Positions 22,350 to 53,050 of a DNA stretch of 61,760 nucleotides are shown one piece after another. Source of the DNA: a virus; IMG/VR virus record IMGVR_UViG_3300009610_000010, positions 1-61,760 of that record; one strand, written 5' to 3'. The position numbers and the translations under genes were made by a program. Numbering within the stretch: the stretch's first letter is position 1; each line of letters opens with the position of its first letter. Below the pieces are notes generated by a model, which worked only from the letters and a program-made list of their open reading frames with translations, was not told where the DNA came from and searched no databases.

Positions 22350-22505
22350 TCACCGTCCTCTTGGCCCGCGGCTTTTCACGGGCTGCGCGGGCTGCCGATA
22401 CAGTGGAAACCGATCATCGTTGCTGCCAGCGCACAGCGCTGCCGCCACTATGCCGGCGAAAAAGCCCAGGAACAGGCCGATCAACAACGCCACCCATGGA
22501 GTCAT
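22350..22505 (-). CDS. Small single-pass membrane protein (51 aa)
   Basis: ATGA overlap with the fibre-gene stop. MTPWVALLIGLFLGFFAGIVAAAL. Confidence 0.45.
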   Translation of the reverse strand: MTPWVALLIGLFLGFFAGIVAAALCAGSNDDRFPLYRQPAQPVKSRGPRGR

Positions 22506-27269: not shown

Positions 27270-27273
27270 TCTC

Positions 27274-28229: not shown

Positions 28230-28477
28230 TAGCCATCCGTTGTGTCATCGATCGGCGGCGTCGAAGCCACCGGCGCCGTTACATACCCTTGTGGCAAGAC
28301 CGGCACCCACTCGTCATCCTCGGTCTCGCGCCAGAACACCTTAAGGTTCGGCGGCACGCTTTGTGTGTCGGCCGCCACCATGAGGAAAGGCCCGTCCTCC
28401 TGGTCCGAGCTGTTTACTAGGTCGGCGATCAACTCGAAGGCTTCTGCCCAGGTCACCATGTGCTTTGCTCCCTTCAT
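28229..28477 (-). CDS. Hypothetical acidic protein (82 aa)
   Basis: TAATG overlaps at both ends. Confidence 0.5.
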   Translation of the reverse strand: MKGAKHMVTWAEAFELIADLVNSSDQEDGPFLMVAADTQSVPPNLKVFWRETEDDEWVPVLPQGYVTAPVASTPPIDDTTDG

Positions 28478-29616: not shown

Positions 29617-29845
29617 GGGTGGGGTGGTCCTTTCGGTTGTTCGGTCGCCCCTTTGGGAGGCTGGGGCTGGGCAGGTGTGTTGCCCCCGCTTTGGGGCTTG
29701 GCAGGGTGCGCGGCCCACGGAGGTGGCGCCCCAGGGTCGCGCCGGCCCGGAGAGCCCCTAAGCGACCGACTCTTGCCCGGGACGCACCCACGTGGGCCGC
29801 GCACCCTGCCATCCCGCGAAACGGGTCGAAGCGGTTGGCACTGCC

Positions 29846-29909: not shown

Positions 29910-31022
29910 TTATGAGCCCAGGTTCAGGCACGTGTTGCAGCGCCCAGCCCCCAGGGCAGGAGCGGTGCAGCTGGTGGCGCAAGCGTCGAGCTGAGCGCAA
30001 TCCAGCAGTGCGGTTTGGTCCTCGTTGAAAATCAGCGCATCCATGCGGAACGTCCAAATGAGCCACGTCAGGTGGCGGGGGGCATCGCGCCACCGCTCGA
30101 AAGTGATGTTCTTTTCGATGCCCACCACGAAGTTGGCCGGATCGCTCGCCACAGCGAACGTCCCGGTGGCCGTGGACAACGACTCGCACCCGCAAGCACG
30201 CAGGTCGGTGGGAATGAGCGCAATAGGCACAATGGGCGACAGCATGTGCTCGCGCGGCGCCGGGCCCAGCAGCGAGCGATCGCCCAGCACGGTTTCGCGG
30301 CCCTGGTGCAGCTCGGCAAAGTCGTGCCACATGTCGGTGGGCATGAAAATGTTGATTTGCTCGGGGTTGCGCCGGTACTTGGTCGGTATGGCTCGCAGCA
30401 GGCAGTTCAGCTTGTGGAACGTGATAGTGCGGTCGCCAGCGTCGGCCCCGGAGAAGCCCCCGGCGTTAAGGATGTGGCCCTGCTGCAGCTGGCGGTACCA
30501 CATGTCGCTGGAGTGCATCACGCTGCCGTTTAGCTTGGTGTCGGCGTTGTAGCTGTTGTTGGTGTTGCCCATCCAGGCCAGCAGCTCACCCTCTTTGGCC
30601 ATCGTCTCACCGGTCATGCGTATGAGCTGCTGCTCTAGCTGGGGGCCGGTGATGCCGTCCTGCAGGTCGTCATCGCAGAGAAAGAACTTCACATCGAGGC
30701 TGATGGTCTTCAAACACTTGTTTGTGTTCGAAATGGTGACCGACTCCTCGGGCGTGGCGTTGCAGGTGGCCAGCCGCATGATGCCACCGTTCATCGACAG
30801 GAACCGAATGTCCTGCTCGTTGGTGGACATTCGCTCGATCGTGGCCAGGCGAAACATCTGCGATTCGTCTTGTACGTAGTCGATCAGCCGATCGGCTTCC
30901 TCGGGCTGGATAATGGCGGGCGCTACGCTGCGGAGCAGAAACTTGGCCTGCTCGTGCTTCGTAAGGCGTCGCCCTTCGGCAACCCGCGGGTGCGCCAGCA
31001 GCGCATGCCCTTGTGACAGCAT
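29910..31022 (-). CDS. Major capsid protein (HK97-fold type) with a Cys-rich C-terminal tail
   Basis: 370 aa with the strongest SD of the region (GGGGGAGGA). Follows protease and scaffold. The last ~30 aa contain 6 Cys. Confidence 0.7.
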   Translation of the reverse strand: MLSQGHALLAHPRVAEGRRLTKHEQAKFLLRSVAPAIIQPEEADRLIDYVQDESQMFRLATIERMSTNEQDIRFLSMNGGIMRLATCNATPEESVTISNTNKCLKTISLDVKFFLCDDDLQDGITGPQLEQQLIRMTGETMAKEGELLAWMGNTNNSYNADTKLNGSVMHSSDMWYRQLQQGHILNAGGFSGADAGDRTITFHKLNCLLRAIPTKYRRNPEQINIFMPTDMWHDFAELHQGRETVLGDRSLLGPAPREHMLSPIVPIALIPTDLRACGCESLSTATGTFAVASDPANFVVGIEKNITFERWRDAPRHLTWLIWTFRMDALIFNEDQTALLDCAQLDACATSCTAPALGAGRCNTCLNLGS

Positions 31023-35157: not shown

Positions 35158-37140
35158 TTACTCGTCCTCTGACTGCGCTGGGCCAGGGCCAAAGTGCCGC
35201 GCAAACCACTCGCCGAACGGGTGGCTCGCCACCACTTGCGTGGGGTCACGAATCTCCACCACCTCGGCGTAGCGCTTTTCGTCCTCGGGAAGCTGAAAGT
35301 CCAGGTCATCCACTTCACTCGGTGGCGGCGGGCGAATACCCGGTGGCAGGTCGGGGTCGCGCCGCTGGTCGCGCGCAAACTCGGCTGGGTCGTTGGCACC
35401 ATCCCACACGTCGGCATCGCTCAGGGCCTGCTCGGCGCTCAGCACCGGGATCTCGGTGCAGCGGCAGTTGCTACAGACAATGCCTTGTGCGACAATCCAC
35501 CCCAGCGGGGATTGGAGGTCGTAGACGTGACCAGAAAACTCGAACTGCCGCACCTCGGCGACTGGATCGAAGAATACCTGGCCGGCACCTCGCTCAAAAA
35601 GATTAGCCAGCAGCACGGCGTTTCCCGCCCCGTTCTTATTCGCCGGTTCAAAGCGTGTGGCGTCGAGATTCGCGGCCGGTCCGACGCGGAGGTACTGAAG
35701 TGGGCCGCCATGAAGCTGGACCGTGGTGCTGTCGAGCGCCAATGCAGCGGGGCCTGGGTTGGGCGCCGGGGCAGGGTCGATCCCATGGAGCGTCGCACCG
35801 CTCGTGCTGTAACCCGGTGCATGCGCCTGCTCAATGTTGGTAAGCATGAGGTCCAGGTGGCCACTGCCCTGCAATTGCTCGGCGAAAACGTGGCGAACCA
35901 ACACGCCATCGGTGCTTACAACGTCGATCTGGCCCTGTGCGAACCGCGCGTCGCCGTGGAGGTCATCAACCAAAACTTCTCGCGCGCGCAAATCTCCTGC
36001 AAACCGCAGCGCGTTGAATACATCCTCGATGCTGGCTGGCTGGTCGTGTTCGTAGTCCACGACGCCAAAACGCGCGACCTGCCGTTCGCTTACGGTCGAG
36101 TAGCAGGCCAGATTGTCGCCCTGGCGCAACTCGCACGCAGGGATAAAGCCGCGCTCGGTCAATACGGGGTGCTGCGGAGTGACGGTCAGCCGGCGCCCCG
36201 TCCGCGCGGTGGTTACCTCAAGCATCGGCCCTACATATTCGACTCGTAGGCCAGCCTCGACACGGCCCGACACCTGCACAAACCCCGGGAAGCAGTTGCA
36301 CACTTGCTTGGCACTGCCGGCGGGGTCCAGCGGGTGCATCAGCTGCTCGCCCCCCACGTCGAATGGCTCGTCAATCTCGCGGATCTGCCCGTGCGCCTCG
36401 AAGTGGTCCTCGCGTTCCCTCCCGTCTAAAGTTGTTAGCCAGCGCTTGAACGGCACGCCAGTGACGTAGTAGGTCAGCCACTGGCCCTCCTCCACCACGG
36501 CGCCGGTTTCGGTGCGGGCGATCAACTCGGCCCGGCTTTGGCTCAGCCAGTCGAACTCCTCGGTCAGCGACTTGGCGACCTCGAACGGCCCCCGGCCCTG
36601 GAAGTAAAACTCCTCGGCGATGACCGTCTTCAGCCGCTCAAACACGTCGGCCGCCACGTTGCCGCTGAGCTGGTTGGCCCGTTCGAGCAAGGCATCGGCC
36701 ACTGCGGGGCTGCGCAGGTTGAACGAGCCACGCACGCCCAGAGCACGGCGCGCCGCGGTGCCCCCGACCTCGAACAGCTCGGGGTAGGCTTCGGCCAGGG
36801 TGCCCTCCAGCTCCAGCCGAAACGCGTCCTCCAGGTCGTCGGTCAGGTTGGCCACCAGGCGAAAGTCGTCGAAGTCGAACACTTCCTCCAGCTCACGGCT
36901 GCGCGTCGGGCCCAGCGGGCCACCTCCACGGCCCACGGCCTGCTTGGTGGCCAGCCGGTGGGTGGCGTCGGTGTGCAGCCGGCTGAGCACCCCACCGCGG
37001 GCCAGCTCGCGCACCACGCGTCGGCCGATCGTGTCGAAGTCGGCGGTCAGCTGGGCGCGCAGCTTCTTAGCGCGGGGGGCCAGGTTCATGGGGCGGCGCA
37101 GCACGGGGCCGCGCTTCCAGTCGAGGGCGGGGGCGGTCAA
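35158..37140 (-). CDS. MuF / SPP1 gp7-type minor head protein interrupted by an intein
   Basis: ELIARTETGAV...WLTTLDGREREDHFEAHGQ...LMHP...VCN|intein|CRCTEIP is the canonical Mu F motif ending in NCRC. Start is TTG 37140 (TTGA overlap) or ATG 37089. Confidence 0.8.
   Translation of the reverse strand: MTAPALDWKRGPVLRRPMNLAPRAKKLRAQLTADFDTIGRRVVRELARGGVLSRLHTDATHRLATKQAVGRGGGPLGPTRSRELEEVFDFDDFRLVANLTDDLEDAFRLELEGTLAEAYPELFEVGGTAARRALGVRGSFNLRSPAVADALLERANQLSGNVAADVFERLKTVIAEEFYFQGRGPFEVAKSLTEEFDWLSQSRAELIARTETGAVVEEGQWLTYYVTGVPFKRWLTTLDGREREDHFEAHGQIREIDEPFDVGGEQLMHPLDPAGSAKQVCNCFPGFVQVSGRVEAGLRVEYVGPMLEVTTARTGRRLTVTPQHPVLTERGFIPACELRQGDNLACYSTVSERQVARFGVVDYEHDQPASIEDVFNALRFAGDLRAREVLVDDLHGDARFAQGQIDVVSTDGVLVRHVFAEQLQGSGHLDLMLTNIEQAHAPGYSTSGATLHGIDPAPAPNPGPAALALDSTTVQLHGGPLQYLRVGPAANLDATRFEPANKNGAGNAVLLANLFERGAGQVFFDPVAEVRQFEFSGHVYDLQSPLGWIVAQGIVCSNCRCTEIPVLSAEQALSDADVWDGANDPAEFARDQRRDPDLPPGIRPPPPSEVDDLDFQLPEDEKRYAEVVEIRDPTQVVASHPFGEWFARHFGPGPAQSEDE
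35467..36294 (-). mobile_element. Intein (276 codons) in the MuF NCRC motif
   Basis: Cys1 (CFPGFVQV), block B LTVTPQHP, block F/G GHVYDLQSPLGWIVAQGIVCSN, +1 Cys. In frame with both exteins. Confidence 0.75.
35527..36249 (+). CDS. Putative homing endonuclease (HTH + Vsr/DUF559-like PD-(D/E)xK core) encoded antisense inside the intein
   Basis: GGAGG 8 nt upstream of GTG 35527. HTH: LAGTSLKKISQQHGVSRPVLIRRFKACGVEIRGRS. Nuclease-like: EVQVATALQLLGENVANQHAIGAYNVDLALCEPRVAVEV...RVEYILDAGWLVVFV. Confidence 0.55.
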   Translation: MTRKLELPHLGDWIEEYLAGTSLKKISQQHGVSRPVLIRRFKACGVEIRGRSDAEVLKWAAMKLDRGAVERQCSGAWVGRRGRVDPMERRTARAVTRCMRLLNVGKHEVQVATALQLLGENVANQHAIGAYNVDLALCEPRVAVEVINQNFSRAQISCKPQRVEYILDAGWLVVFVVHDAKTRDLPFAYGRVAGQIVALAQLARRDKAALGQYGVLRSDGQPAPRPRGGYLKHRPYIFDS

Positions 37141-37670
37141 TTGCTGCCCGGCTCCTCGCGGGCGGTGTTGGCCGTGGCCAGGTACTCGACCTCCACGGGG
37201 TTGCCATCGGCGTCGCGCACGATGCGCACCAGGCCGCGGGCCTCCCAGTCCTGCCGCACTCGGCGGTAGCCCTCGCGCCGCAGGGGGCCCGGGTGCACGC
37301 GCTGGTGCGGGTGCACCTGCACCACCTCATCCCCGGGACTAAACCCGGTGCCCCGGTCAATCTTGCAGTCGATCACGGCGCTGACCTTGGCCCGGCGGTT
37401 GCGCGGGTAAAACGGCGGCTCGGCCATGAGCATCCAGCCGCAGCCGCGGTACTCGCCCACAAAGGGGGCCTCATCGGCCATGCACATCACGATCTTGTAC
37501 TCGCGGGGGCACGCACTGGCGTAGCCACACCGCGGGCATACCACGTCCATCAGCTGGCGGCGGCGCTCCTCGGCGGCCACCTGCTCGCGCACCCTAGGGG
37601 GGGCCCACAACTGGGCCGCTGGGCTGTAGTCGAGCCGGCGCCGCAGCCGGGGGTCAGGCCGCAGGTCCAC
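37137..37670 (-). CDS. Hypothetical protein with a zinc-ribbon motif (177 aa)
   Basis: GTG start overlapping the portal end; CPRCG...C...C. Confidence 0.5.
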   Translation of the reverse strand: MDLRPDPRLRRRLDYSPAAQLWAPPRVREQVAAEERRRQLMDVVCPRCGYASACPREYKIVMCMADEAPFVGEYRGCGWMLMAEPPFYPRNRRAKVSAVIDCKIDRGTGFSPGDEVVQVHPHQRVHPGPLRREGYRRVRQDWEARGLVRIVRDADGNPVEVEYLATANTAREEPGSN

Positions 37671-39552
37671 CGTTGGCTCCTACCGGTGGGGCCAGGCGGC
37701 GCCGATCGCTGCGCATGCGCTCGCTGATGGTGCCCACCCCGGCGCGCAGCTGCCCCAGCTGGTCGGCCGTGGTGCTGCGCTCGCGCGTGGCAGCGGCCCG
37801 GCCGGCGGCCTCGGTCAGGCTGCCCAACAGGCGCCGGGCCCCGGGGCTGCCAGCGGTGGCAGCCACGCCCACGCCCTGCTCGCTGCCATCGTCACCACCG
37901 GCCATGAGCACGGCGGCCTTGAGGTCCACCAGCTTGGTGGGCATGCTGGCCCACGGGTCGGGGTCGGGCGGGAAATCCTGGTTCTTGACGATGCGGCTGG
38001 CCGCTGCCCGTATGTCGTTGATGCTCAGGGCGCCGGTGCTGGCCAGCACGCTCACGATCTGCGCGTCGCGCAGCTCGTCCACGGTGTCGTACTCGTTGTA
38101 CTGGAACCGCACCATGGGCAGCAGGCGCAGGTCGAGGATGATGTTCCAAAAGGCTTCGAGCATTTCCTGCCGCGGCTCGATCTGGCTGCGCTTGTACGTC
38201 TCGTCCTGGGTTTCGCCGCTGCCCGTGCCCAGACTCGCCGTCTCGATGATGCCCAGCTTGCTGGGCAGCATGCGATAGACGTGGATGATGTTGTCGCGGT
38301 TGGTTTGCTGGTAGTCCGCCCACTCCTGGTCCTTGGGCTCACCGCCCAGCTTTTCGAAGACGATTTCCACCTGCTCGATCGGCACCTTCAGCGTCATGGT
38401 GCGCTGGTCGTCGCCCTCGATCATGTACCGCATGTGGTCCTCGATGGTGTGCTGGATGCCATCGAGGATGCTCTTGCTGTCGGGGTTGGCAAAGGCCGCC
38501 GTGGGGGCCTTGATGAACACCACGTAATCGGGCACCCCGCGGTTGATGAAGAACCGGATGTTGCGGTTCGAGGCCAGGATGTTGCCCACCAGGCTGTTGA
38601 GCGCGGCCACGATGGGCGGGATGCCGTAGTAGCGCTCGGCCGGGTGGTAGTGCTTGAAGTCCACCAGCTCGCGCTTCAGGTCGCCAAAGCGCTGGCCCTT
38701 TTGCAGCTGCGCCCCGTGGGGCAGCCCGGCTGCCACGGCGATGGCCTCCTCCCGGCTGATGTAGGCCCACGGCGTGTCGGTGTCGATGCGCCCCTGGGCC
38801 AGGGCCGAGGGATCGAGCGGGGCGACCTCGGCCCCGAAACGGCGGAAGAAGGCCGCGGGGCGCCCCAGCTCGTCCAACTGGGCAAACGTGGTGCCGTCGA
38901 AGCCCCGGCGCACCAGCCGTGCCAGCACGTGTATGAGCTGCGTGGGCAGGTCCGCGTCGTCGCGCACGATCTCGATGTGCGCCTGCCCCGTGCTGTCGTA
39001 GTCCTTGATCAGCAGCTGGCTGAACGTGCTCACGGGGATGTGCTGGTCGTCAAAGTCACGGGTCATGCTGTCGAGCAGGCGCTCGGCCTCGGCGCGCTGG
39101 GCGTCGGCGGCGGTGTCCTCCAGGGCGGTGGGGGCAATGTCGGTGCCCTCGGGGGCGCCCTCCTCGGTGTCCACCAGGCGCCACCCACTGGCCGCATCGA
39201 GGGCGAACTGATCGACCACGGCGAAGTAGGTGTGCGACTCGAACAGCAGCCCAGCCAGGGTGTCGAGGTCAAACGGGGGCTCGGCGTACAGCCCCATGAT
39301 GGCGGCGACTTCGCCGGGCGGCTCGGGCCGGCTCACGCGGCCGGGTGCGGGGTCGCCATCGGCCTTGGCCTGCTGCTGGCCGCGGTGGCGGTCGCGTACG
39401 GTGCCGGGGGTGCGCAGCCCGAGCAGGGGATAGTTGGTGGGCAACTCGTGGTAGCGCTCGGCGGTGGTGCTCTCGCGGATGACCACGCTGTGGGCCTCGG
39501 GCGGCTGCAGGGCGGGCGGGGCGGGCAGGGGCGGGGCGCCGCGGGTGATCAT
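37654..39552 (-). CDS. Portal protein
   Basis: ~630 aa. YYGIPPIVAALNSLVGNILASNRNIRFFINRGVPDYVVFI core motif. Start ATG 39552 after GGGGGAAA. Confidence 0.8.
   Translation of the reverse strand: MITRGAPPLPAPPALQPPEAHSVVIRESTTAERYHELPTNYPLLGLRTPGTVRDRHRGQQQAKADGDPAPGRVSRPEPPGEVAAIMGLYAEPPFDLDTLAGLLFESHTYFAVVDQFALDAASGWRLVDTEEGAPEGTDIAPTALEDTAADAQRAEAERLLDSMTRDFDDQHIPVSTFSQLLIKDYDSTGQAHIEIVRDDADLPTQLIHVLARLVRRGFDGTTFAQLDELGRPAAFFRRFGAEVAPLDPSALAQGRIDTDTPWAYISREEAIAVAAGLPHGAQLQKGQRFGDLKRELVDFKHYHPAERYYGIPPIVAALNSLVGNILASNRNIRFFINRGVPDYVVFIKAPTAAFANPDSKSILDGIQHTIEDHMRYMIEGDDQRTMTLKVPIEQVEIVFEKLGGEPKDQEWADYQQTNRDNIIHVYRMLPSKLGIIETASLGTGSGETQDETYKRSQIEPRQEMLEAFWNIILDLRLLPMVRFQYNEYDTVDELRDAQIVSVLASTGALSINDIRAAASRIVKNQDFPPDPDPWASMPTKLVDLKAAVLMAGGDDGSEQGVGVAATAGSPGARRLLGSLTEAAGRAAATRERSTTADQLGQLRAGVGTISERMRSDRRRLAPPVGANGGPAA
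37802..37867 (-). repeat. 66-bp perfect inverted repeat, copy B (partner 91..156), inside the portal C-terminal region
   Basis: Exact reverse complement of 91..156. Encodes the same 22 aa in the portal frame. Confidence 0.95.
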
Positions 39553-39794
39553 GGTTTCATTTCCCCCAGGCGGCGGCACCGGCCTGGCGGGGGCCCGGCA
39601 TCGACGCAAAACGCTTCGACCATGGCCCGTTGGCGCCACTCGGCGGCCACGTCCAGCACGTCACGCCGCAGGCGCGCGTCGCTCACCCGGGGCACGGCCG
39701 GCCTGCTCGGGCGCCCGTAGCCGTAAACGGCACGGTAGGCACGCATCAGCGCTGCCAGGCGCTTGTACGGGTTGGCCTCGGGCTCGTCACTCAT
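39549..39794 (-). CDS. Hypothetical protein (81 aa)
   Basis: ATGA overlaps at both ends. Confidence 0.5.
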   Translation of the reverse strand: MSDEPEANPYKRLAALMRAYRAVYGYGRPSRPAVPRVSDARLRRDVLDVAAEWRQRAMVEAFCVDAGPPPGRCRRLGEMKP

Positions 39795-40075
39795 TCGTGG
39801 CTGTCCCAACAGGGCGGGGCCCCCGGGCCAACGTGAACCAAAATCGTCACCAGGTCCAGCGGATTGGTGGGCGTGCCCAGGTGGTCGCGATCCAAGACGC
39901 GCACGTGCACGGCCGCGGTGCCACCCCAAATAGGGGTGAAGCCGTCGGGCACTTGGTCGAAGCCGGGCCGCGCGGTGGCCACCATCACCTCAAAGGCGCG
40001 GCCCAGGCGCATCAGGCCAGCACCCGCCGCACCAGCGGGCCCCGCCCCGGTGGCAGGGGTTGTGGCCCCCCTCAC
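39791..40075 (-). CDS. Hypothetical protein (94 aa)
   Basis: GTGA overlap start. Confidence 0.45.
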   Translation of the reverse strand: MRGATTPATGAGPAGAAGAGLMRLGRAFEVMVATARPGFDQVPDGFTPIWGGTAAVHVRVLDRDHLGTPTNPLDLVTILVHVGPGAPPCWDSHE

Positions 40076-40551
40076 CGTGGGGCCACGGGGTCGGGCCGGC
40101 GCTCGCCCGGGGTGGGTGTCGTGCCGGCATAGGTGTAGGGCTCGGGCCCGGGGGCCATGGGCACCTTTGCCAGCCCCTGCTGCTCGTTCATGCGGGCCAG
40201 GGCAGCGGTGATCGCGGCGAGCTGCGATTCGAGCGTGGCCATCTTGGCGTCGGCCGGCGCCATCGCCCCGGTGCCGTAGTTGCTGGTTTGGGGCAGCAGC
40301 TCGGTGCGCTGCGTGGGCGCAGCCCCGGTGGGCAGGCGGGCCTCGGCTGCATCGGCGTAGGCCAGCATCTCGCGCCCCAGGCTGCGGATGGTGCGCACCT
40401 CGTCGGGGCCCGAGTCGGCCGCCGCAGGCATGAGCACCACGGCGGGGGGGGTGTCGGAAAAGCGCAGCACCAGGCCCAGGGCCCGCAGCGCGGCGTGCTG
40501 CCGATGGTACTCCATGGCCTGGTCCTCAAGCGACAACTGATCGGGATTCAT
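40072..40551 (-). CDS. Hypothetical protein (159 aa)
   Basis: ATG start; overlaps the upstream gene end by 26 nt. Confidence 0.5.
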   Translation of the reverse strand: MNPDQLSLEDQAMEYHRQHAALRALGLVLRFSDTPPAVVLMPAAADSGPDEVRTIRSLGREMLAYADAAEARLPTGAAPTQRTELLPQTSNYGTGAMAPADAKMATLESQLAAITAALARMNEQQGLAKVPMAPGPEPYTYAGTTPTPGERRPDPVAPR

Positions 40552-41335
40552 GGCTCTCCTTTCGTTTGCGCGTGTCGCGCAGGCGCAGGTCGTATGCTAC
40601 GGACTTCTTGCTGGTCACTACCCGGCACAGCCCGGGGTACATGCGGGCCATTTCCAGGCACCGGTCCCGGATGGCTTCCGGGGTGCGCGTTTCCTGTAGT
40701 CCACCAGGCTCCTTCCAGTAGGCCGTTTTGGCGGTGATCCAGTTGACTCGCACCAAGGCACCATCCGCAAGGTAGCACTGGATGCTGCGCTCGAAGTCGT
40801 CCTTTGGGTCGCCCGCCTCTAGACCCGTGAGTTGGCGTGCCGGGTCGGTGCCCCAGTTAATGCAGCCGTAGAAGCACCCAACGATGTAGCACAAGCCGAA
40901 TGTGATCGTTGGTGACATATAGAAGGGATTGGCAGCGGCGTACCCACCCCATAGCTTCGCCCTTGTGCGGTGACAGGCCAGGAAGGCCGAAGCCACCAGG
41001 TCCTGCCAGGTCGTGGCGTCGATGCTTTCCAGCTTTCCGGCCCGCACGATGCGAATGTCCTCCACGTCATCATCGAACGACATGAGCTGCACGCCGGGCG
41101 GGTACGCTGCATGCAGAGCATTCCGGTTGCGGGCACAGCCCAGCGCCCCCGCACGCACCTCGACTTCGCCGTAGCCAGCGGCGTCCAGTGACGAGCGGTA
41201 GCCAGCGACCTCATCGGGTGCCGTGAAGACACTAATGGTTGAGCGGGCTGCGCCCAGCCGGTCGAGCAAGGGAAGCGTTTTCCGGGTGACCGTTTCGGCG
41301 CGCTTGTGGCTCGGAATGGCCACGGGCGGATGCAA
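40526..41335 (-). CDS. GT-A fold glycosyltransferase adjacent to the TET/JBP gene (candidate DNA-base glycosyltransferase)
   Basis: N-terminal VAIPSHKR beta1 motif and SFDDDVED (DxD). Immediately downstream of the dioxygenase. TTG/GTG start is ambiguous. Confidence 0.55.
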   Translation of the reverse strand: MHPPVAIPSHKRAETVTRKTLPLLDRLGAARSTISVFTAPDEVAGYRSSLDAAGYGEVEVRAGALGCARNRNALHAAYPPGVQLMSFDDDVEDIRIVRAGKLESIDATTWQDLVASAFLACHRTRAKLWGGYAAANPFYMSPTITFGLCYIVGCFYGCINWGTDPARQLTGLEAGDPKDDFERSIQCYLADGALVRVNWITAKTAYWKEPGGLQETRTPEAIRDRCLEMARMYPGLCRVVTSKKSVAYDLRLRDTRKRKESHESRSVVA

Positions 41336-41337
41336 TG

Positions 41338-42306
41338 CTACTCGCCCCGGCCAAAGTCGGCCTGCTTGGCCACGGCAGCACCACGCTGCCGCTCCTCAGC
41401 CGGCGTACCGCACTCGGCCATCTTCGTGCGGTAGTAGAGCACCAGCGTCATGCGCTCGAAGCGCTTGTGGAGGCCATCGTATGGGCTGGTACCGTGCCAC
41501 TCGTGCGGGTCGAAGAACAGGGCGTCACCCGTGTTGAGTTCGATGGCCAGGCGGTACTTGGGTAGCACCAGGTGGCCACCGGTGAACTGCCCGGATCGGA
41601 TCATCACCAGGTTCGAGAACCCCGGCTTGTAGTCACCGTCGTCCTGATGGGTGCCGCACTGAAAGTTACGATTCACGGTGATGGTGGAGAAGCACGTGCC
41701 GCCCACCAGCCACTGCGGGCAGGTCCGGTTGGCGATCTCCCGCTGTGCTGCCCAGCGATCAGGCACGGCATAGGCCATCAGCTGCTCGACTTCCCTTGCC
41801 AGGGGCACGACCGACTTTAAGCACTCCTGATTAACACCATTTGCCGAGGCGGCACGGCAGTATGGCCGGCGATCATCGCGGTCAAGGCAGCCAACCACAT
41901 CAGATGAGCCAAGGCGAAGATGGCGTGAAACGTGATTTGGGATTCTATTTGTTTTGCTGCGCACGACGGTGCCGTTGCGGTTAACTGCCGGGTAGCCCTT
42001 TAGTGTTCGCCCATTGCCATCACGCCCAGCCGCGCTACCACGGTTTAGTGGTGCATGGGATAGGCCACGCAGCCCACTCCAGGCCATGCCCAACGCACCG
42101 GCTGAGAGCGCGCCGCGCAGCACCACGAACAGCGTGCTGCCGTCGATCCGCAGCCCCCGGATCGAATCGCCATCCATGCCCAACACCTCGTCGTACCAAC
42201 TGGGCTCGGGCCGGAAGCCGCGCAGCGCTTTGGCTTCCTTTTCATCCAAGGCGGCGGTCACGCCCATTTCACGCACCCGCCCGGGGGCAAAGCTGGGGGC
42301 CAGCAT
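41338..42306 (-). CDS. TET/JBP-family 2OG-Fe(II) dioxygenase
   Basis: HxD in CGTHQDDGD; LVLPKY; EWHGTSP followed 10 aa later by RMTLVLYYR. This parallels the ELHATTP...RISLVFYQH arrangement of TET enzymes as I remember it. Confidence 0.7.
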   Translation of the reverse strand: MLAPSFAPGRVREMGVTAALDEKEAKALRGFRPEPSWYDEVLGMDGDSIRGLRIDGSTLFVVLRGALSAGALGMAWSGLRGLSHAPLNRGSAAGRDGNGRTLKGYPAVNRNGTVVRSKTNRIPNHVSRHLRLGSSDVVGCLDRDDRRPYCRAASANGVNQECLKSVVPLAREVEQLMAYAVPDRWAAQREIANRTCPQWLVGGTCFSTITVNRNFQCGTHQDDGDYKPGFSNLVMIRSGQFTGGHLVLPKYRLAIELNTGDALFFDPHEWHGTSPYDGLHKRFERMTLVLYYRTKMAECGTPAEERQRGAAVAKQADFGRGE

Positions 42307-42308
42307 TG

Positions 42309-43097
42309 CTATGGGCTCCGTGGATCGTCTGGCATGCCATCGGCCGCGAAGCCCAGCGCGGCCAGCACAATGTCAGTGGGGTTTTCGAGGCCAGCAGCGT
42401 TACCAACCTGTCGCATCAGCCCTTTGAACTCGGCCAGCTGGTTGTCATCCATGATCAAACGCACGCTGCGCACGTTGCTGTCCACCGGGGGCTCAAAGTC
42501 CCCCGCCCCCTGCTCCACTCCGTAGTCGCGCGCCGCCCCGGGAACAAACTCCAGCACCTTGCCAGGGTAGAAGATGTCCTCGAAGCGCAGCGCTGCAAAC
42601 AGCGTCTCGGGCATGCTGTCGCGCGCTGCCATCAGAAGCTCGGTCGTGCGCTCGTTGAACGTGCCCATCAGGGCGTCGTTGTTCAGGGTCAGGTTCAGGG
42701 CCTTTTCCCGGCCCTCGTCCATGTCCACCACCGTCACCACGCACAGCTCGGTGCCGGCGGCCTGCATGGCCTTGAGCCGCTGGTGGCCACCCACCACCCG
42801 CTGGGTGCGGCGGTTCCATACGATCGGCTCCACCAGGCCAAACTCCTGCAGGCTGCGGCGCAGCCCGGCCAGGGCCTCGGGCGTGATGGTGCGCGGGTTG
42901 TACTCGCTGGGGCGCAGGTCGGCCACCCGGCGCACTTCGAGCCGCATGCCCGCGAGGTCCACCGCGCTGGGGCCCTGGGGCTCGGTCAGTACTTGGGCGG
43001 CGACTTCTTCGGGCCCTTGGGCTTGGGGGGCTTCTTGGGGGCTGGCTTTTTCTTGGGCGTGGCCATGGATCGGTCCTCCTCCTGTAATGGGGCTCAT
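42309..43097 (-). CDS. ParB/Srx-like N-terminal domain protein
   Basis: LRPSEYNPR...GLVEPIVWN...VVGGHQRLKA motifs. ATGA overlap start. Confidence 0.6.
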   Translation of the reverse strand: MSPITGGGPIHGHAQEKASPQEAPQAQGPEEVAAQVLTEPQGPSAVDLAGMRLEVRRVADLRPSEYNPRTITPEALAGLRRSLQEFGLVEPIVWNRRTQRVVGGHQRLKAMQAAGTELCVVTVVDMDEGREKALNLTLNNDALMGTFNERTTELLMAARDSMPETLFAALRFEDIFYPGKVLEFVPGAARDYGVEQGAGDFEPPVDSNVRSVRLIMDDNQLAEFKGLMRQVGNAAGLENPTDIVLAALGFAADGMPDDPRSP

Positions 43098-43345
43098 GGG
43101 CGCAGCTCCTGCACGGTTTGCTCGGCCCAAAACTCGCCATGTGCGCACCGCACACACGGCGTGCCCAGCGGCTGCCCGTGCTCGCACTTGAGCGGCAGCG
43201 TGGGGGGCACGGTCAGCGAGCCGCCGTCGGCATCGGCCACGGCAGCCGAGTTGTAGCTGGCCACAAACCGCTCGTGCAGCAGTTGCAGCACACGTGCCCG
43301 GGCGGAAGGCGGCAGTGGCTGCAACAGCTTCAGCATGCGATTCAT
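43094..43345 (-). CDS. Hypothetical protein (83 aa)
   Basis: ATG 43345; C..H...C..C pattern near the C-terminus. Confidence 0.4.
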   Translation of the reverse strand: MNRMLKLLQPLPPSARARVLQLLHERFVASYNSAAVADADGGSLTVPPTLPLKCEHGQPLGTPCVRCAHGEFWAEQTVQELRP

Positions 43346-43394
43346 GGCCAGCACCTCGGCATCGAACTTTGGGCTCACCGTGGCTTTTTCTCCG

Positions 43395-44558
43395 TCAGTC
43401 AGTCGTCCACACCAGGTTGCGGAACGCAATCTCCGGTGTGCCGCCGTAGTCGCTCAGGTGGTCCATGTTGCCGCAGCTCACCGAGTAAGGATTGACCGTT
43501 TGCGGGTGCACCGTGACCACGCGCTCGGTCGCCTGCCCGCTGGCCGAAAAGCGCATCCACATTTTGCTGGCCTCACGGCGCTCCCACTGCAGGGAGAATG
43601 GTATCCACTTGCCCACGCCGGCATGGGCGATACTCGTGTTCCAGATGTCCACCACGGCATCGAGCTGGCCGTTGCGCAGGTACCAGCGGTTGCCGTTGCC
43701 GTCGAGGTTGTAGGTGTGGATCTTCCAAATGCTTTGCGAGCTGATGATGTCAGGCCGGAACCACCCCTGCAGGTATTGGGGGTTGAGCGCCCGCTCGCCC
43801 GACTGCGCGGTGAACAGATGCCCACCGCCGCCGTCCTGCGGGATCTGCGCCGTGCGGTAGTAAACCTCGATCGCCGCGCGGCCCCGCACCACTGGGCTCG
43901 CGGCCATGCGCTTGTAGGCATTGGCGTTGGTGCCCATCACGCCCACGGTGTTGTTCGACTCGCTCTTGAACTTGGGGGGCTCGTCGATGCACCAGTTTTG
44001 CCAGAACCCCGCGCCCGCCAAAAAGCCCGCCAGGCAGATGCCCGTGGGCGGCGGCGGATCGGGCGGCACGATCGAGCCAGCCCTCGTCGCCTTGAACTCA
44101 ATGACCTTGGGGCTCCCCTGGACTGGACTCCCCTCATGCGTCCCCCTGATCACCACCCGGGCCGTCTTCGTCGTCTCCACCCCGACGGGGAACGATCCGC
44201 TCCAGAAGGGATTCAGGGAAACAACCGCGTCCCCCGTTCCAACGGTCCCCGACACCGGCGGTTCGATCTCGTACCAGTCGGCCGGAGCTTCCTTCTCCGC
44301 CGACCAAGCGATCGGCAGGGAAGCGTTGCCGACATTCTTTACCCGGATGATCCCCGGCTCCTCGGGGTGGATGATCTCGACGAGTGCTGGCGTCGCGTCT
44401 AACACCGGCCCATCCGGCGGCGGGCCCGAGCCCTCGACGAAGGTCTGAGAGAAGCAATCGCTGATCGAGTCCAGTTGCTCGGGGGTGAATTGGTGCGAAT
44501 CCGTCAAGCATTGCTGGAACTCACCGAATGACACGATCGTGATCGGCTTGAATCCCAT
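43395..44558 (-). CDS. Hypothetical protein with a beta-sandwich/lectin-like (LamG/ConA-like?) C-terminal half (387 aa)
   Basis: ATG 44558 after GGGAGGG. Composition and W/Y-rich beta pattern only. Confidence 0.4.
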   Translation of the reverse strand: MGFKPITIVSFGEFQQCLTDSHQFTPEQLDSISDCFSQTFVEGSGPPPDGPVLDATPALVEIIHPEEPGIIRVKNVGNASLPIAWSAEKEAPADWYEIEPPVSGTVGTGDAVVSLNPFWSGSFPVGVETTKTARVVIRGTHEGSPVQGSPKVIEFKATRAGSIVPPDPPPPTGICLAGFLAGAGFWQNWCIDEPPKFKSESNNTVGVMGTNANAYKRMAASPVVRGRAAIEVYYRTAQIPQDGGGGHLFTAQSGERALNPQYLQGWFRPDIISSQSIWKIHTYNLDGNGNRWYLRNGQLDAVVDIWNTSIAHAGVGKWIPFSLQWERREASKMWMRFSASGQATERVVTVHPQTVNPYSVSCGNMDHLSDYGGTPEIAFRNLVWTTD

Positions 44559-44568
44559 CTCGCCCTCC

Positions 44569-45525
44569 CTAGACGACGGCCCCTTGGGCATGAACGCCGG
44601 AGCACATATTCCAGAGGCCGATGCGCCCCGATACGGAAAGCGATTCGTCGGCGATCGCGGTCAACACGGACGGAACGTCCGGGTCAATCACCTCTTGCTT
44701 TGCCGCTAGCGCTTGCGCGTAGGCTTGCCGCACCTCGGGCTCGTCCCCCGTGAAAGCGATCCATCCGCCCGAGCGCTTCCACTCGGCGATCAGGTCCGGC
44801 ACCCGGCTTGACGTGGCAAACACGGCCAGCACGTTGTCCGGGTGCTGCTTCCATAGGGCCACGTGCTCGTCCCAGGTGGCCTCGATCGTCCAGTCGGCCC
44901 GCTCGAAGAAGCACGGTTGCGGCGCGAGATTGTCGCCGTTACAGAGGACCTTCCGGCCGTCGAGCGTCCGCAGCTCGGCAAGGAAGGCCGTGATGTTCCG
45001 CTGCCATGCGGTCCAGAGGATCTCGTTGAAATCAGAGTATGCAGCGCCCTGCGCGGAAAACGCCCAATAGGGGGGCTGCCGATAGGTGAGATCGAGCCAC
45101 AGGCCATCGCCCGCGGGCACGAGGTCGTTGATGCGACGGCGCAGCTGGTCACGCTTGGCGTTGGCCAGCTTGTGCCAGGTCCAAAGCGTGGGCTGCCCGA
45201 ACCACGGGTAAATGGCGGGCACCCCGTCGCTGTTGGCCAGGGGGCCGGCTGATCGAAAGTCCCACAGGTACTTGAACCATGGGCTGCCGGCGACCCAGCC
45301 TTCGAGCGGGCGAGTAAGGATGTTGATGTACCGGAAGATTTTGATGCCACGGGCGCGCAGGGCCTGCAGCTTGGGGTGGTCCATCGAGGGCACGGTTTGC
45401 GAAATGGAGTACGCGTCGAGCGCGGCCTGCGCTGGGTCGAGCGCTTCGAGGTTCGCCAGCTCCATGTGGCCAAACAGCCTGAGTGGCCGGGGGGCGGCGG
45501 TAGGCGCGTCGAGCGGGTCGGTCAT
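44569..45525 (-). CDS. Glycoside-hydrolase-like TIM-barrel-type protein (paralog of the C-terminal domain of 19842..21329)
   Basis: Shares motifs with 19842..21329. ATGA overlap start. Confidence 0.45.
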   Translation of the reverse strand: MTDPLDAPTAAPRPLRLFGHMELANLEALDPAQAALDAYSISQTVPSMDHPKLQALRARGIKIFRYINILTRPLEGWVAGSPWFKYLWDFRSAGPLANSDGVPAIYPWFGQPTLWTWHKLANAKRDQLRRRINDLVPAGDGLWLDLTYRQPPYWAFSAQGAAYSDFNEILWTAWQRNITAFLAELRTLDGRKVLCNGDNLAPQPCFFERADWTIEATWDEHVALWKQHPDNVLAVFATSSRVPDLIAEWKRSGGWIAFTGDEPEVRQAYAQALAAKQEVIDPDVPSVLTAIADESLSVSGRIGLWNMCSGVHAQGAVV

Positions 45526-45950
45526 GGCCCCTCGGACTGTGGCCCCATGGGTGGGTTGCGCAGTCGGTTGCGCCCCCCGCGAATGGGCAGCGGCGGCGGG
45601 GGCTGCTGGCCGTTGGCACTGGGCGCCTCGGCGGCGGCCTCGTCGGCCTCGGCCTCAGCGGCAGGCACAGGCGCCGGCTGCGGCTGGCCGTAGTTGGGGT
45701 CCTCGCTCATGGCGATGATGAGGAACCGCGGCTGGCTGCCGCCCGTGGGCGCCCCACCGGGGCCCACGATGCCGGGGGCGGGCTGCTCGCCTGCGTACAC
45801 AAACTGCACGGCAAAAGGGCGGCGCAGCGCCCGGGCCAGGCTCATAACGCCATCTGGTAAACTGGTCCAGCCCACCACGCGCGTAGTGTGCACGGTCATG
45901 CCGGGGTGATAGATCCACGGATCGGCGGCTTGCTGCACTTGATGGAGCAT
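45522..45950 (-). CDS. Hypothetical protein with a Pro/Ala/Glu-rich C-terminus
   Basis: ATG 45950 (alternative TTG 45959). First gene after TerL. Confidence 0.45.
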   Translation of the reverse strand: MLHQVQQAADPWIYHPGMTVHTTRVVGWTSLPDGVMSLARALRRPFAVQFVYAGEQPAPGIVGPGGAPTGGSQPRFLIIAMSEDPNYGQPQPAPVPAAEAEADEAAAEAPSANGQQPPPPLPIRGGRNRLRNPPMGPQSEGP

Positions 45951-45994
45951 GTGCGCCAACGTAAGCGCGCCACGCGGTGGGAGTCAAGTGGCGA

Positions 45995-47515
45995 CTAGCG
46001 GCTGGTGGCTTCGAGGTACATCAGGGCGCCCAGGCCCTTCAGCCGGCAGTCGGCCAGCCACAGGGCCATCAGGCGGTCGCCGGTGTGGTCCCGCAGGTTG
46101 TAGCGCCGGGCCTCGGCGATCAGCTCCTCCACCTCGCGGCGCTGCTGGGGCAGGCGCCAGCGCAGGGCATCGAAGTCGGCGCCCATCCCCCGGATGGCCC
46201 AGTGCTCCTCGCCGCGCTTGGCCGAGGCCGTGGTGTACTGCCCAAAAACGCGGATGGTCGCCGCTTCCTGCTTGGTCGCCCCCAGGGCCCCCAGCAGCTC
46301 GGCGTCCTGCGCGAGGTGGGCGATGTGCAGCTGGGCGGCGTTGGTTTCGACCAGCCACTCGTTAGGGCGCATCTGGCGCTGCACGGCCAGGATCTCCTGC
46401 AGCAGGGCCTTGCCCACCCACATGCCACTGCGCAAGTGCAGCAGGTGTTTGTGGGTGGCCGTCTCGCCCACCACGGCGATGGCGGTGAGGTTGCTGCCGG
46501 CGCGCTCGCTGGCGCCCAGGTCTACCCCGGCGGTGATCCATCGAAAGGCGCCATCGTGGTACTGGCCGCCCCACCACTCGGGCGGGTCGGTGCACAGCTC
46601 CTGGCACCGGCGGATCGACTCGTAGGGCAGCAGGTTGGTGGCTTCGCCGATGGGCACATTCAGCATCTGCCGGGCGTACTCCTGGTCGCCCAGCTCGTTG
46701 CGGCGGGCCGCGAGGCGGGCATCGGGCCACACCTCGGGCCACTGGCAGTTGTGGTCACCGGCGTTGTACGTCTCGACGTGCCACACGTCGGGGTTTTCCT
46801 TGGCCAGCACGTGGTAGGCATCCAGCTCGTGCCACGTGTTGTTGATGGCCAGGATGCGCCCCTGCTCGGTCAAGCGGCCGATGAGGGTGCGTTTGATCCA
46901 GTCGTAAATCTTCTCCCGCCCGGCCCGGGTGAACGCGTTGCGCTCGGTGATCACGTCGTCGAGGATGGCCAGGTCGATGCGCGATCCCATGATGCTGCCA
47001 CCCACACCCATGGCCTCGATCGAGTAGTCCTTTTCGCGCAGGCTGGTCATGCGGTCGCGCTCGACCGTGATGGCGTTGTTCAGCCACGACACCAACATGC
47101 CGCCGTTGCGGGTGGCCGGGCGCAGGTTGGGCCACACCTGGCGCACGGCGGGGTTGAACTGGATGTTGTCCTTGATTCGGGCGAGCCACTTGCGGGCCTG
47201 GGTGGCCGTTTCGCTGATGATGGCGATACGCAGGTTGGGGTCGCGGCCCAGCTCGCCCATGGGGCGCATGAGAAGCAGCTGCGACGACTTGCCGAACTCC
47301 GGGGGGGCATAAAGAATCAGCCGCGGATGGGTGTCCGCGGCTAGCTGCCATGCCAGGTGAAACGCTTTGGGATTAAGGCGCAGCGCGTGCTGGCCCAGGA
47401 AGGCCGGGCTGGCGCGTGCGAGCGCGATCGAAGATTGCTCTAATACCGGCGATCCCTTCGCCGACCGCCAGCTGCTCCTCCGGCGTGAGCCGTTCGACAA
47501 GCGCGGCGAGTTCAT
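45995..47515 (-). CDS. terL: Terminase large subunit
   Basis: Walker A LYAPPEFGKSS, Walker B-like IDLAILDDV, and a C-terminal nuclease-type region. Follows TerS. Start is ambiguous (ATG 47515 or 47548), and either overlaps TerS by more than 140 nt. Confidence 0.8.
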   Translation of the reverse strand: MNSPRLSNGSRRRSSWRSAKGSPVLEQSSIALARASPAFLGQHALRLNPKAFHLAWQLAADTHPRLILYAPPEFGKSSQLLLMRPMGELGRDPNLRIAIISETATQARKWLARIKDNIQFNPAVRQVWPNLRPATRNGGMLVSWLNNAITVERDRMTSLREKDYSIEAMGVGGSIMGSRIDLAILDDVITERNAFTRAGREKIYDWIKRTLIGRLTEQGRILAINNTWHELDAYHVLAKENPDVWHVETYNAGDHNCQWPEVWPDARLAARRNELGDQEYARQMLNVPIGEATNLLPYESIRRCQELCTDPPEWWGGQYHDGAFRWITAGVDLGASERAGSNLTAIAVVGETATHKHLLHLRSGMWVGKALLQEILAVQRQMRPNEWLVETNAAQLHIAHLAQDAELLGALGATKQEAATIRVFGQYTTASAKRGEEHWAIRGMGADFDALRWRLPQQRREVEELIAEARRYNLRDHTGDRLMALWLADCRLKGLGALMYLEATSR

Positions 47516-48116
47516 CGTCGAGCCCGCCGCTTCCGCGGGACTTGCCATTGCCGCCGGAAACTACCACACCCGGGCCCAGGTCACCGTGCTGGGCACCCCA
47601 GCGGGCCATGTCGGCGGTGAAGCCCCCCCGCGCGGCCAGGATGCCCCGCAGGCACAGGTCGGCCTGGCGGGCAGCAGCGAGCTGAAAGTGCGCCCGGCGG
47701 CGGCGGGCCACGCGGCGGCGCAGGTGCAGGGCGGGGTCGGCCTGGCACTGGGCGTCGCTCAGGTCGCAGTCCTCCTTCTCGTAGTTGGCAGCTGCGGCCA
47801 TGACCATGCTGTATTGCACGAGGTAGCGCTCGGCCACGCCGGTGCGCACCGCGGCGTAGTCGGTGCGCTGGCTTTCGCGGGTGTTCCAGGCGCGTTCGTC
47901 GCGGGCGGCCGTCTCGTGGCTGACTCCCAGTTCCTCGGCGATGGCGCGGATGGGCACGCCCTGAGCGCGCAGCTGGATGACCCGCGCGCGACGTTCCCAC
48001 AGCGAGTTACCGTTGTCGGCTCGGCGGGAAGGTGGGTGCTGCATCTTCTTGGCGGTACCGGGCTGTGATGCAGGCGGATCGGGGCTTGATGCTTGATTAG
48101 ACGTGGCCTTATCCAT
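47373..48116 (-). CDS. terS: Terminase small subunit (HTH)
   Basis: IQLRAQGVPIRAIAEELGVSHETAARD HTH. Immediately upstream of TerL. ATG 48116 (alternative TTG 48128). Confidence 0.65.
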   Translation of the reverse strand: MDKATSNQASSPDPPASQPGTAKKMQHPPSRRADNGNSLWERRARVIQLRAQGVPIRAIAEELGVSHETAARDERAWNTRESQRTDYAAVRTGVAERYLVQYSMVMAAAANYEKEDCDLSDAQCQADPALHLRRRVARRRRAHFQLAAARQADLCLRGILAARGGFTADMARWGAQHGDLGPGVVVSGGNGKSRGSGGLDDELAALVERLTPEEQLAVGEGIAGIRAIFDRARTRQPGLPGPARAAP

Positions 48117-48143: not shown

Positions 48144-48218
48144 TGGCTGGAGGACCAGGATTCGAACCTGGGACGGGCCGGTTAACAGCCGGCTGGTCTA
48201 CCGCTGAGCTATCCCGCA
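48144..48218 (-). tRNA. tRNA-Asn (anticodon GUU) with one acceptor-stem and one D-stem mismatch; CCA encoded
   Basis: Hand fold: UGCGGGA-UA-GCUC-AGCGGUA-GACC-A-GCCGG-CUGUUAA-CCGGC-CCGUC-CCAGG-UUCGAAU-CCUGG-UCCUCCA-G-CCA. There are C3-C70 and C11-C24 mismatches. Confidence 0.7.
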
Positions 48219-52013: not shown

Positions 52014-52035
52014 CGTTGCTTGCTCCTGTTGCCGG

Positions 52036-52110
52036 GCGCGACCCCCATGGCCGCGCACACCCCATACACATCGCAAAAGCGGGGCCAACGCTAAGTGATG
52101 CACTGGCCGT
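52036..52110 (-). promoter_or_regulatory. Conserved intergenic element, copy A (promoter/operator or 5'-UTR structure)
   Basis: On the - strand: GCTTTTGCGATGTG core, then the hairpin GCGCGGCC-ATGGG-GGTCGCGC, then the RBS. Near-identical to copy B. Confidence 0.5.
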
Positions 52111-52978: not shown

Positions 52979-53050
52979 GGCGCGACCCCCATGGCCGCGC
53001 ACACCCACACCACATTGCAAAGCCTGGGCCAATGCGTGGCCCCGCGCCAG
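52979..53050 (-). promoter_or_regulatory. Conserved intergenic element, copy B
   Basis: Same hairpin (GCGCGGCCATGGGGGTCGCGC) and a GCTTTGCAATGTG core, in the same position relative to the RBS as copy A. Confidence 0.5.

Follow-up and report, generated by a model that had tools for sequence, protein, structure and literature searches.

Positions 40526-43097 of the IMG/VR virus record IMGVR_UViG_3300009610_000010 (the whole of which, 61,760 nucleotides, was analysed and is called the window) hold three consecutive genes, for a ParB-like protein, a TET/JBP-type Fe(II)/2-oxoglutarate (2OG) dioxygenase and a GT-A type glycosyltransferase (GT) of the TAGT family, and this locus adds one more member to a kind of phage system described recently rather than defining a new one. 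In the scheme that we favour, the phage DNA would be replicated by host machinery, and the TET/JBP enzyme would then hydroxylate thymine at its C5-methyl in double-stranded phage DNA to give 5-hydroxymethyluracil (5hmU), with the ParB-like protein either switching the dioxygenase on or holding it on the double strand. The TAGT would use a nucleotide-sugar to glycosylate the hydroxyl group so formed, and some of the thymines would end up as base-J-like glycosyl-5hmU; the likely pay-off would be protection against host nucleases. Taken as one joint reading, from ParB-assisted oxidation through glycosylation to nuclease protection, this appears fairly probable. A more specific version, in which the virion DNA carries base-J-like glycosylated 5hmU made after replication at sequence-selected thymines by a ParB-activated TET enzyme and a TAGT, while sister phages with 80%-identical dioxygenases carry another sugar or linkage through exchange of the GT, has in our estimate about an even chance of being right. 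The analysis establishes the family assignments, the intact catalytic residues, the domain layouts, the gene coupling, the lack of a C5-methyltransferase, the conserved ParB-TET pairing and the mobility of the unit; the literature and gene context lead us to infer thymine as the substrate, dependence on ParB, sugar transfer to 5hmU and the benefit to the phage. The cassette and the open reading frame (ORF) immediately upstream of it are laid out as follows.

42309-43097, minus strand: ParB-like protein, 262 aa (Pfam ParB_N, phrog_620)
41338-42306, minus strand: TET/JBP (5mYOX) Fe(II)/2-oxoglutarate dioxygenase, 322 aa (Pfam Tet_JBP)
40526-41335, minus strand: TAGT glycosyltransferase, GT-A type, 269 aa (Pfam TAGT, phrog_25200)
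43094-43429, minus strand: upstream ORF, 111 aa, coupled to the ParB gene

The cassette and its proteins

The three ORFs fill the interval given for them in the initial annotation, which had described them as consecutive and coupled, and every motif quoted there was located at its residues. Translational coupling across the three genes is real: the ParB start codon overlaps the stop codon of the 111-aa ORF (ATGA), the dioxygenase ATG lies 2 nt past the ParB stop (TAG-ca-ATG), the GT start lies 2 nt past the dioxygenase stop (TAG-ca-TTG), and the GT gene shares a 26-nt overlap with the next gene. The ParB gene has a longer alternative GTG start at 43187 that is unlikely to be used; the ATG at 43097 is preferred because it makes the ATGA overlap and because the homologues begin there. 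That the genes form a DNA base hypermodification module, as first proposed, is borne out.

The dioxygenase matches the Pfam family Tet_JBP (PF12851) with E=1.3e-18 and 67.2 bits (cut-off 34.9), and it comprises this one domain with no second Pfam family. The motifs HQD (residues 220-222), EWHGTSP (269-275) and RMTLVLYYR (285-293) contain the iron ligands H220, D222 and H271 and the 2OG-binding R285; these are followed by C299, the last conserved residue, and all five residues are invariant across an alignment of 21 homologues, all of them metagenomic. The enzyme shares with the 5mC-specific NgTET1 (5mC, 5-methylcytosine) an Asp three residues past the HxD motif (D225). Single-sequence searches of the Protein Data Bank (PDB) with the dioxygenase and the GT returned nothing meaningful; a profile built from dioxygenase homologues reached human TET2 with E=3.4e-4, covering the HxD and the distal His/Arg segments. 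The AlphaFold2 (AF2) model of the dioxygenase has a mean predicted local distance difference test score (pLDDT) of 87.8, and its top 26 Foldseek matches in the PDB are CcTet, NgTET1, TET2 and CMD1 (E 1e-12 to 1e-9), with FTO/AlkB in the next tier at 1e-5 or worse; the iron ligands and R285 thus belong to a double-stranded beta-helix of TET type. Against the viral structure library BFVD the best matches are phage JBP1/TET oxygenase proteins, with E down to 1.8e-31, and prolyl-hydroxylase-like proteins appear only near 1e-4. The initial annotation had named a profile match to a non-nucleic-acid 2OG family as an outcome that would speak against it; both profile and model point instead to a nucleic-acid TET/JBP enzyme and not to a prolyl or lysyl hydroxylase, and the protein is predicted to be a thymine C5-methyl hydroxylase that converts T to 5hmU. 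Beyond C299 there is a 23-residue C-terminal extension, predicted to be helical over residues 302-319, and an insertion at about residues 95-133, variable in length and modelled with lower confidence, is a candidate counterpart of the variable insertion (vi) domain of the ParB-dependent type. The closest relative of the dioxygenase in a cultured phage, at 30% identity, is encoded by Pelagibacter phage HTVC112P (L007, MN698246.1:6973-9195), where the misleading annotation 'DnaJ chaperone protein / putative SNF2 DNA repair protein' is attached to it; its gene is flanked by one for a ParB-like protein and one for an FkbM methyltransferase, and so has the ParB-TET core with another tailoring gene.

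The ParB-like protein matches Pfam ParB_N (E=1.4e-6, 28.7 bits, cut-off 26.3), phrog_620 'ParB-like partition protein' (E=1.5e-25) and, by phmmer, Spo0J (E=2.8e-7). In its AF2 model (pLDDT 74.8) a disordered N-terminus (residues 1-44) precedes a ParB/Srx nucleotide-binding domain (NBD) at about 45-145, a helix-helix segment at 150-169, a disordered linker at 180-209 (pLDDT <50) and a small helical C-terminal domain at about 210-252 (helices 218-252), the model of this last domain being based on about ten full-length homologues. The top Foldseek matches are the chromosomal ParB proteins of B. subtilis, C. crescentus and M. xanthus (6sdk, 7bm8, 7bnr; E 6e-8 to 9e-7) and span just 127-130 or so columns, that is, the NBD only. 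No helix-turn-helix (HTH) DNA-binding domain was found, whether as a Pfam HTH family, in the AF2 layout or among the structural matches, which are limited to the NBD. Residues N67, R69, S82 and R107 are invariant among homologues and have the spacing of N14, R16, S29 and R56 in ParB176, the residues named in PMC13229309. The motif GGHQRL occupies residues 103-108, and its first five residues (GGHQR, 103-107) stand where the canonical box is GERR, so that the Glu implicated in hydrolysis is replaced by His.

All full-length homologues of this ParB are encoded beside TET genes. Its NBD is 50-60% identical to the ParB_N domain of ParB-N6/N4 methylase fusions (PF02195+PF01555), which are common in phages and prophages and in which, as in the window, ParB_N accompanies a DNA-modifying enzyme; unlike those fusions, the window ParB stands alone as a polypeptide, has a C-terminal domain of its own and lacks a methyltransferase domain. 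A 470-aa fusion of ParB_N with a GT was also found (P0155, L126:5001-6413) in the NCBI metagenome assembly GCA_040383985.1, where it adjoins an HNH gene; its GT part is of the window type, with 34% identity to the window GT. Both kinds of fusion fit a ParB lineage that serves as an accessory of DNA-modifying enzymes, and the window ParB is predicted to be an activator or DNA-loading partner of the dioxygenase.

The GT matches Pfam TAGT (PF20691) with E=2e-9 and 38.1 bits (cut-off 27.5) over profile positions 2-205 of 205, and phrog_25200 with E=4e-40. AIPSHKR lies at residues 6-12 and FDDDV at 87-91, and the residues R12, D88-D89-D90 and D179-D180-F181 fit, in sequence, the signature R...DDD...(E/D)D(Y/F). 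The form R...DDD...EDY/F has been described as common to phage GT-A DNA glycosyltransferases and the T. cruzi JGT (10.1101/2023.12.21.572611). The enzyme is predicted to add a sugar to the hydroxymethyl group that the dioxygenase makes.

Bases 1-123 of the window are an exact copy of bases 61638-61760, which makes the window a circular and complete phage genome, about 61.6 kb long. Since the assembly is complete, the absence of a C5-methyltransferase, first noticed in the called genes, holds genome-wide. Pfam scans of about 83 called and alternative ORFs, which together span the window, detected no member of the DNA_methylase, N6_N4 or Dam families; with tblastn, E. coli Dcm reached no better than E=0.74 in the window; a phmmer search with Dcm of the 885 open frames that are 40 aa or longer gave nothing with E<1; and no PCQ, ENV or FxGxG motif occurs in a real frame. 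The possibility that the TylF and Methyltransf_11 domains encoded at 6.5-10 kb are unrecognised DNA methylases was rejected, as they belong to small-molecule or sugar O-methyltransferase families and are fused or adjacent to GT2 and GT9 domains. Neither a DNA polymerase nor a thymidylate-synthase-like enzyme turned up in Pfam scans of the genome, and on this account any modification must be post-replicative and take place on the polymer.

Relation to known modification systems

Phage TET/JBP enzymes encoded beside a ParB homologue have been characterised by O'Toole et al. (PNAS 2026, PMC13229309; bioRxiv 2025) as thymine dioxygenases activated by ParB, with two subclasses of phage thymine dioxygenase. 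The clade C1 enzymes 5mYOX176 and 5mYOX185 yielded 0.5-1% 5hmU alone and up to 25-35% with the cognate ParB, which was required in vitro specifically on double-stranded DNA; the 5mYOX-associated ParBs retain the NBD and, beyond a short helix-helix segment and an unstructured linker, the C-terminal dimerisation domain, and lack a DNA-binding domain; and the ParB-dependent dioxygenases extend C-terminally past the last conserved Cys, which is C280 in 5mYOX176 (PMC13229309). The initial annotation had taken it that phage TETs oxidise 5mC installed by a co-encoded methylase, and that a thymine route would be unusual for a phage of this type. The first premise is out of date: GTs neighbour 31% of phage 5mYOX genes, ParBs 27% and terminases 19%, and C5-methyltransferases only about 6% (PMC13229309). 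The second does not stand either, given the known ParB-activated enzymes. The specific association of ParB with 5mYOX-containing GT pathways, most of them without a methylase, had been noted in 2023 (Pyle et al., 10.1101/2023.12.21.572611). The TAGT/ParB prediction itself reportedly goes back to Iyer et al. in 2013.

The window locus resembles clade C1 in several respects. Its TET/JBP gene immediately follows a ParB homologue, with a terminase nearby and no neighbouring C5-methyltransferase; its ParB has the same order of NBD, helix-helix segment, disordered linker and C-terminal domain, again with no DNA-binding domain; its dioxygenase extends past the last conserved Cys, and C299, as the last invariant residue, would be the equivalent of C280 in 5mYOX176; and relatives of its dioxygenase are linked to genes for GATase, amino-acid:DNA transferase (AADT) and P-loop kinase. 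It differs in that its tailoring enzyme is a TAGT and not the amino-acid or polyamine machinery emphasised for clade C1, and in the GGHQR box of its ParB. These features and the gene context, rather than phylogeny, support placing the locus in the ParB-dependent subclass of thymine dioxygenases.

The same context recurs among relatives, of which IMG/VR holds at least 576; 87 loci were examined, 76 with enough upstream sequence, and the downstream gene was compared in 82 relatives. A ParB gene lies upstream on the same strand in 76/76, directly adjacent in 71 and within 0.6-2.9 kb in the other five, and the ParB-TET pairing is kept down to about 30% identity. A Dcm-like gene is present at a single locus out of the 87 (L060). 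The gene just 3' of the dioxygenase encodes a GATase in 29 of the 82, a TAGT in 17 (18 Pfam matches when the window's own GT is counted) and an AADT in 12; less frequent products of this gene are N6/N4 methylases (5), FkbM methyltransferases (4), P-loop kinases (3) and an aGPT-Pplase (1). The relatives L004-L006 likewise stand beside thymine-hypermodification enzymes. These downstream partners are the ones given for clade C1 in thymine hypermodification and are known as machinery for 5hmU; several use only intermediates derived from 5hmU.

Some of that machinery is familiar from phages M6, ViI, SP10 and PhiW-14, in which 5hmU reportedly enters before replication as 5-hydroxymethyl-deoxyuridine triphosphate (5hmdUTP). 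In the window, unlike those phages, 5hmU would arise after replication, and a GT would replace the kinase and transferase. The common element is that 5hmU in polymer DNA is a handle for downstream enzymes (PMC8989533), and the enzymes concerned (P-loop kinase, AADT/aGPT-Pplase) adjoin relatives of the window dioxygenase. The trypanosomatid base J pathway (JBP1/JBP2 and JGT) offers another parallel, in that a TET/JBP-family enzyme converts T to 5hmU and a GT-A-fold enzyme glycosylates it, as is predicted for the phage, and phage GT-A enzymes structurally resemble T. cruzi JGT (10.1101/2023.12.21.572611). Unlike JBP1 and JBP2, the window enzyme has neither the J-DNA-binding domain of the former nor the SWI2/SNF2 domain of the latter, and has a ParB partner instead; the role in the phage would presumably be anti-restriction, not transcription control. 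Lastly, the clade A/B clusters of C5-methyltransferase, TET and GT (PMC8256090; 10.1101/2023.12.21.572611) also combine post-replicative TET oxidation with a GT-A enzyme bearing R...DDD...(E/D)D(Y/F), and ParB and terminase genes have been noted on their contigs too. Their defining co-encoded C5-cytosine methyltransferase is absent from the window's whole genome, and because of this the substrate is probably T and not 5mC.

Exchange, mobility and genome context

Comparison with the sister phage L001 shows that the GT gene alone has been exchanged, since the 75-76% DNA homology found by blastn of the window against L001 ends at 41393 and restarts at 40565, leaving a gap that nearly coincides with the gene.

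40566-41392, minus strand: segment without DNA similarity to sister phage L001, approximately the GT gene

At the protein level the dioxygenases of the two phages are 80% identical and the ParBs 79%, and the GTs only 23%. Two TAGT subtypes alternate among the related phages, with the window type in L118 (100%) and L121 (60%) and the L001 type in L120 (59%) and L002 (39-41%). The GT position is thus a replaceable slot and, the slot being swappable, sister phages probably attach different sugars or use different linkages.

Other variable or sugar-related genes occur in the same genome. Between the terminase block and the cassette lie two genes of 318 and 398 aa (43395-45525, compared with L001:7190-8913) that match no family and have no DNA similarity to their L001 counterparts, the first being 29% identical at the protein level and the second essentially unrelated; they make up a second variable region beside the cassette. 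Far from it, a second set of sugar genes comprises a TylF-type O-methyltransferase (6499-7095), a GT2-like gene (7082-7876) and a gene for a 725-aa GT2+GT9+Methyltransf_11 fusion (7873-10050). A GT9 gene (28477-29718) lies directly downstream of the major capsid gene (29910-31022), and L002 also has a GT9 gene beside its capsid gene. These distant genes may glycosylate virion proteins, or could conceivably elaborate the DNA sugar.

The cassette is flanked by the large terminase gene (45995-47548) and the portal gene (37654-39639). L001, L120, L121 and L122 have a matching order of head genes with ParB and the dioxygenase at the same site, and the cassette stands between terminase and portal in several sister phages; no recognisable GT follows the dioxygenase in L122. 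In L002 and L003 the same three genes are on the opposite strand, between protease and MuF genes. The site is therefore better regarded as that of a mobile insert than as a fixed functional site, and the cassette is, on these comparisons, a horizontally mobile three-gene unit. The proposal in the initial annotation that the position suggests coupling to packaging is accordingly weakly supported, and is opposed by the location in L002/L003. The G+C content at third codon positions, 0.75 for the dioxygenase and GT genes vs 0.89-0.91 for the flanking terminase, portal and orf159, also fits a mobile unit. The 111-aa ORF, which has no Pfam or PHROG match, is present in L001 and missing from the relocated cassette of L002/L003, and for that reason is counted as a neighbour outside the mobile unit. 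A scan of 37-49 kb for promoters and terminators gave no site above chance.

The dioxygenase gene also exists in a shortened form. The segment concerned is flanked by an 11-nt direct repeat, GTTGGGCATGG.

42095-42184, minus strand: 90-nt stretch encoding dioxygenase residues 42-71

It is deleted in frame, with loss of 30 residues, in L118 (JGI 3300012159; 1386-2264) and L119 (ENA ERZ27267656), which are otherwise 100% identical to the window over the ParB, dioxygenase and GT genes and which encode the same 292-aa dioxygenase product. The deletion takes out the nearly invariant residues D55, G56 and L59. The full-length allele is found in at least nine contigs from several samples (including L123 and L124).

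The phage is novel at the DNA level and very distant from cultured phages: megablast of window positions 40000-47600 against 50,697 phage records gave zero matches, and the terminase is only about 24% identical to those of cultured phages. A scan of GTDB genomes for prophage relatives, from which a host might be deduced, found just relatives of at most 39% identity, in many phyla. Among further features of the genome, a single tRNA-Asn (GTT) gene lies at 48144-48218 on the minus strand, just upstream of HTH and terminase genes. The overlap of the window ends sits in a tandem array of a 12-nt unit (GCAGCCNGGGAC, about 30 copies; window 1-200 and 61459-61760) inside an ORF that wraps the contig ends, so that its product would contain a repeated tetrapeptide. 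The MuF-like head protein (35158-37140) has 660 aa vs 343-359 aa in the sister phages L120 and L122, and its residues 294-544, with a weak Intein_splicing match below the Pfam cut-off, may hold an intein or other insertion. Three tandem paralogues of 159, 165 and 159 aa (26790-28229; period about 478 nt, 67-76% identity) lie just downstream of the gene for a 1305-aa protein (22502-26419) with internal repeats 1.4-1.6 kb apart. Two copies of a 57-nt direct repeat with 84% identity (52035-52091 and 52979-53035, 944 nt apart) lie among the early genes and may be a repeated regulatory site.

Competing explanations and significance

Several points weigh against the favoured scheme. A search of the literature found no chemical demonstration of glycosyl-5hmU from a phage TET-GT pair, and this step is a prediction for the class as a whole. 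Burke et al. (2021, PMC8256090) saw no residues that discriminate T from 5mC as substrate, and an attempt to read a preference from the residues of the window enzyme was dropped for that reason and because D225 is common to it and 5mC-specific NgTET1. In PMC13229309, 5mYOX176 and 5mYOX97 oxidise 5mC too in vitro; the same report gives less than 5% 5hmU in E. coli for many ParB-paired enzymes, and names GATase, kinase and AADT as the chief partners of the ParB-dependent subclass, with GTs found chiefly beside the ParB-independent clade C2. With GGHQR in place of GERR, the window ParB may have lost CTP hydrolysis; the CTP-binding and hydrolysis residues are dispensable in ParB176 (PMC13229309). 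Finally, since a deletion allele of the dioxygenase circulates, the function of this enzyme is perhaps dispensable.

The initial annotation had left the choice between host-installed 5mC and a JBP-like action on thymine. Of these the thymine option is now the better supported; the host-methylation option, though less so, is the main rival. According to it, the phage would rely on 5mC made by a Dcm-type methylase of the host, and after oxidation the GT would make glycosyl-5-hydroxymethylcytosine, as in clade A/B. The phage has no methylase of its own, as such a route would entail, and one relative, L060, does have a Dcm-like gene; moreover, characterised phage thymine dioxygenases can use 5mC in vitro as well (PMC13229309), and every phage GT-A DNA glycosyltransferase studied to date was assayed on 5-hydroxymethylcytosine (10.1101/2023.12.21.572611). 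It is nevertheless difficult to see why, on a cytosine route, ParB should be present in every relative with enough upstream sequence, or why the downstream partners should be 5hmU-specific (AADT, aGPT-Pplase, P-loop kinase, GATase). ParB-paired enzymes made 5hmU (PMC13229309), and clade C TETs paired with C5-methyltransferases gave no detectable hydroxylation of 5mC (PMC8256090). A phage that relied on a host methylase would, besides, be protected only in hosts of the right genotype and at sparse sites. We therefore regard the cytosine route as distinctly unlikely.

The cassette might instead lay down a sparse, sequence-specific mark of 5hmU, or of a further oxidised base, for regulation or packaging, the GT being a non-DNA enzyme or acting at few sites. 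The NTR preference of 5mYOX176/ParB176, their conversion of at most 25-35% and the epigenetic-like role raised for them (PMC13229309) are in keeping with this, as are the place of the cassette in the packaging region, where it has no promoter or terminator signal of its own that exceeds chance, and the proposal of Aravind and co-workers, as cited in PMC8256090, that ParB targets modification during packaging. The GT, however, is a TAGT above the Pfam cut-off and is coupled to the dioxygenase, and a TAGT has the same position in 17/82 relatives; a role tied to packaging sits poorly with the other site and strand of the mobile cassette in L002/L003; and swaps of the GT between sister phages are the pattern expected of a nuclease arms race. 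Such a mark seems to us unlikely. That the cassette is decaying or inactive cargo, its ParB being independent, for instance a nuclease or a partition protein, is very unlikely indeed, even though two other assemblies of the same phage lack D55, G56 and L59 through the 30-residue deletion, L122 has no recognisable GT after its dioxygenase, and the PHROG names of ParB relatives include 'nuclease' and 'partition protein'. In the window the catalytic residues are all intact and invariant and the three ORFs are full length and coupled; the full-length allele occurs in the nine or more contigs mentioned above, the ParB-TET pairing is conserved down to about 30% identity, and there is no ParA partner or parS-type function for a ParB that itself lacks a DNA-binding domain.

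Current understanding of these enzymes is unchanged by the locus, because phage TET enzymes as a rule have no accompanying methylase and its absence is no anomaly. What is new here is modest and specific to the locus, namely the exact swap of the GT for a 23%-identical subtype and the 30-residue deletion allele. The window does add a complete genome context to a class of system whose biochemistry was worked out only in 2025-2026, for the most part on metagenome fragments. It shows the ParB-dioxygenase pair moving together with a tailoring gene that can be replaced, with precise exchange of the GT among close relatives, which is the pattern expected if the DNA sugar is under diversifying selection from host nucleases. 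If glycosyl-5hmU is indeed the product, bacterial viruses would have a counterpart of trypanosome base J, the enzymes could serve for labelling thymine or 5hmU in DNA, and this group of phages, in which both GT subtypes and a naturally occurring allele with 30 residues deleted are present, would be a natural test bed for such modification.

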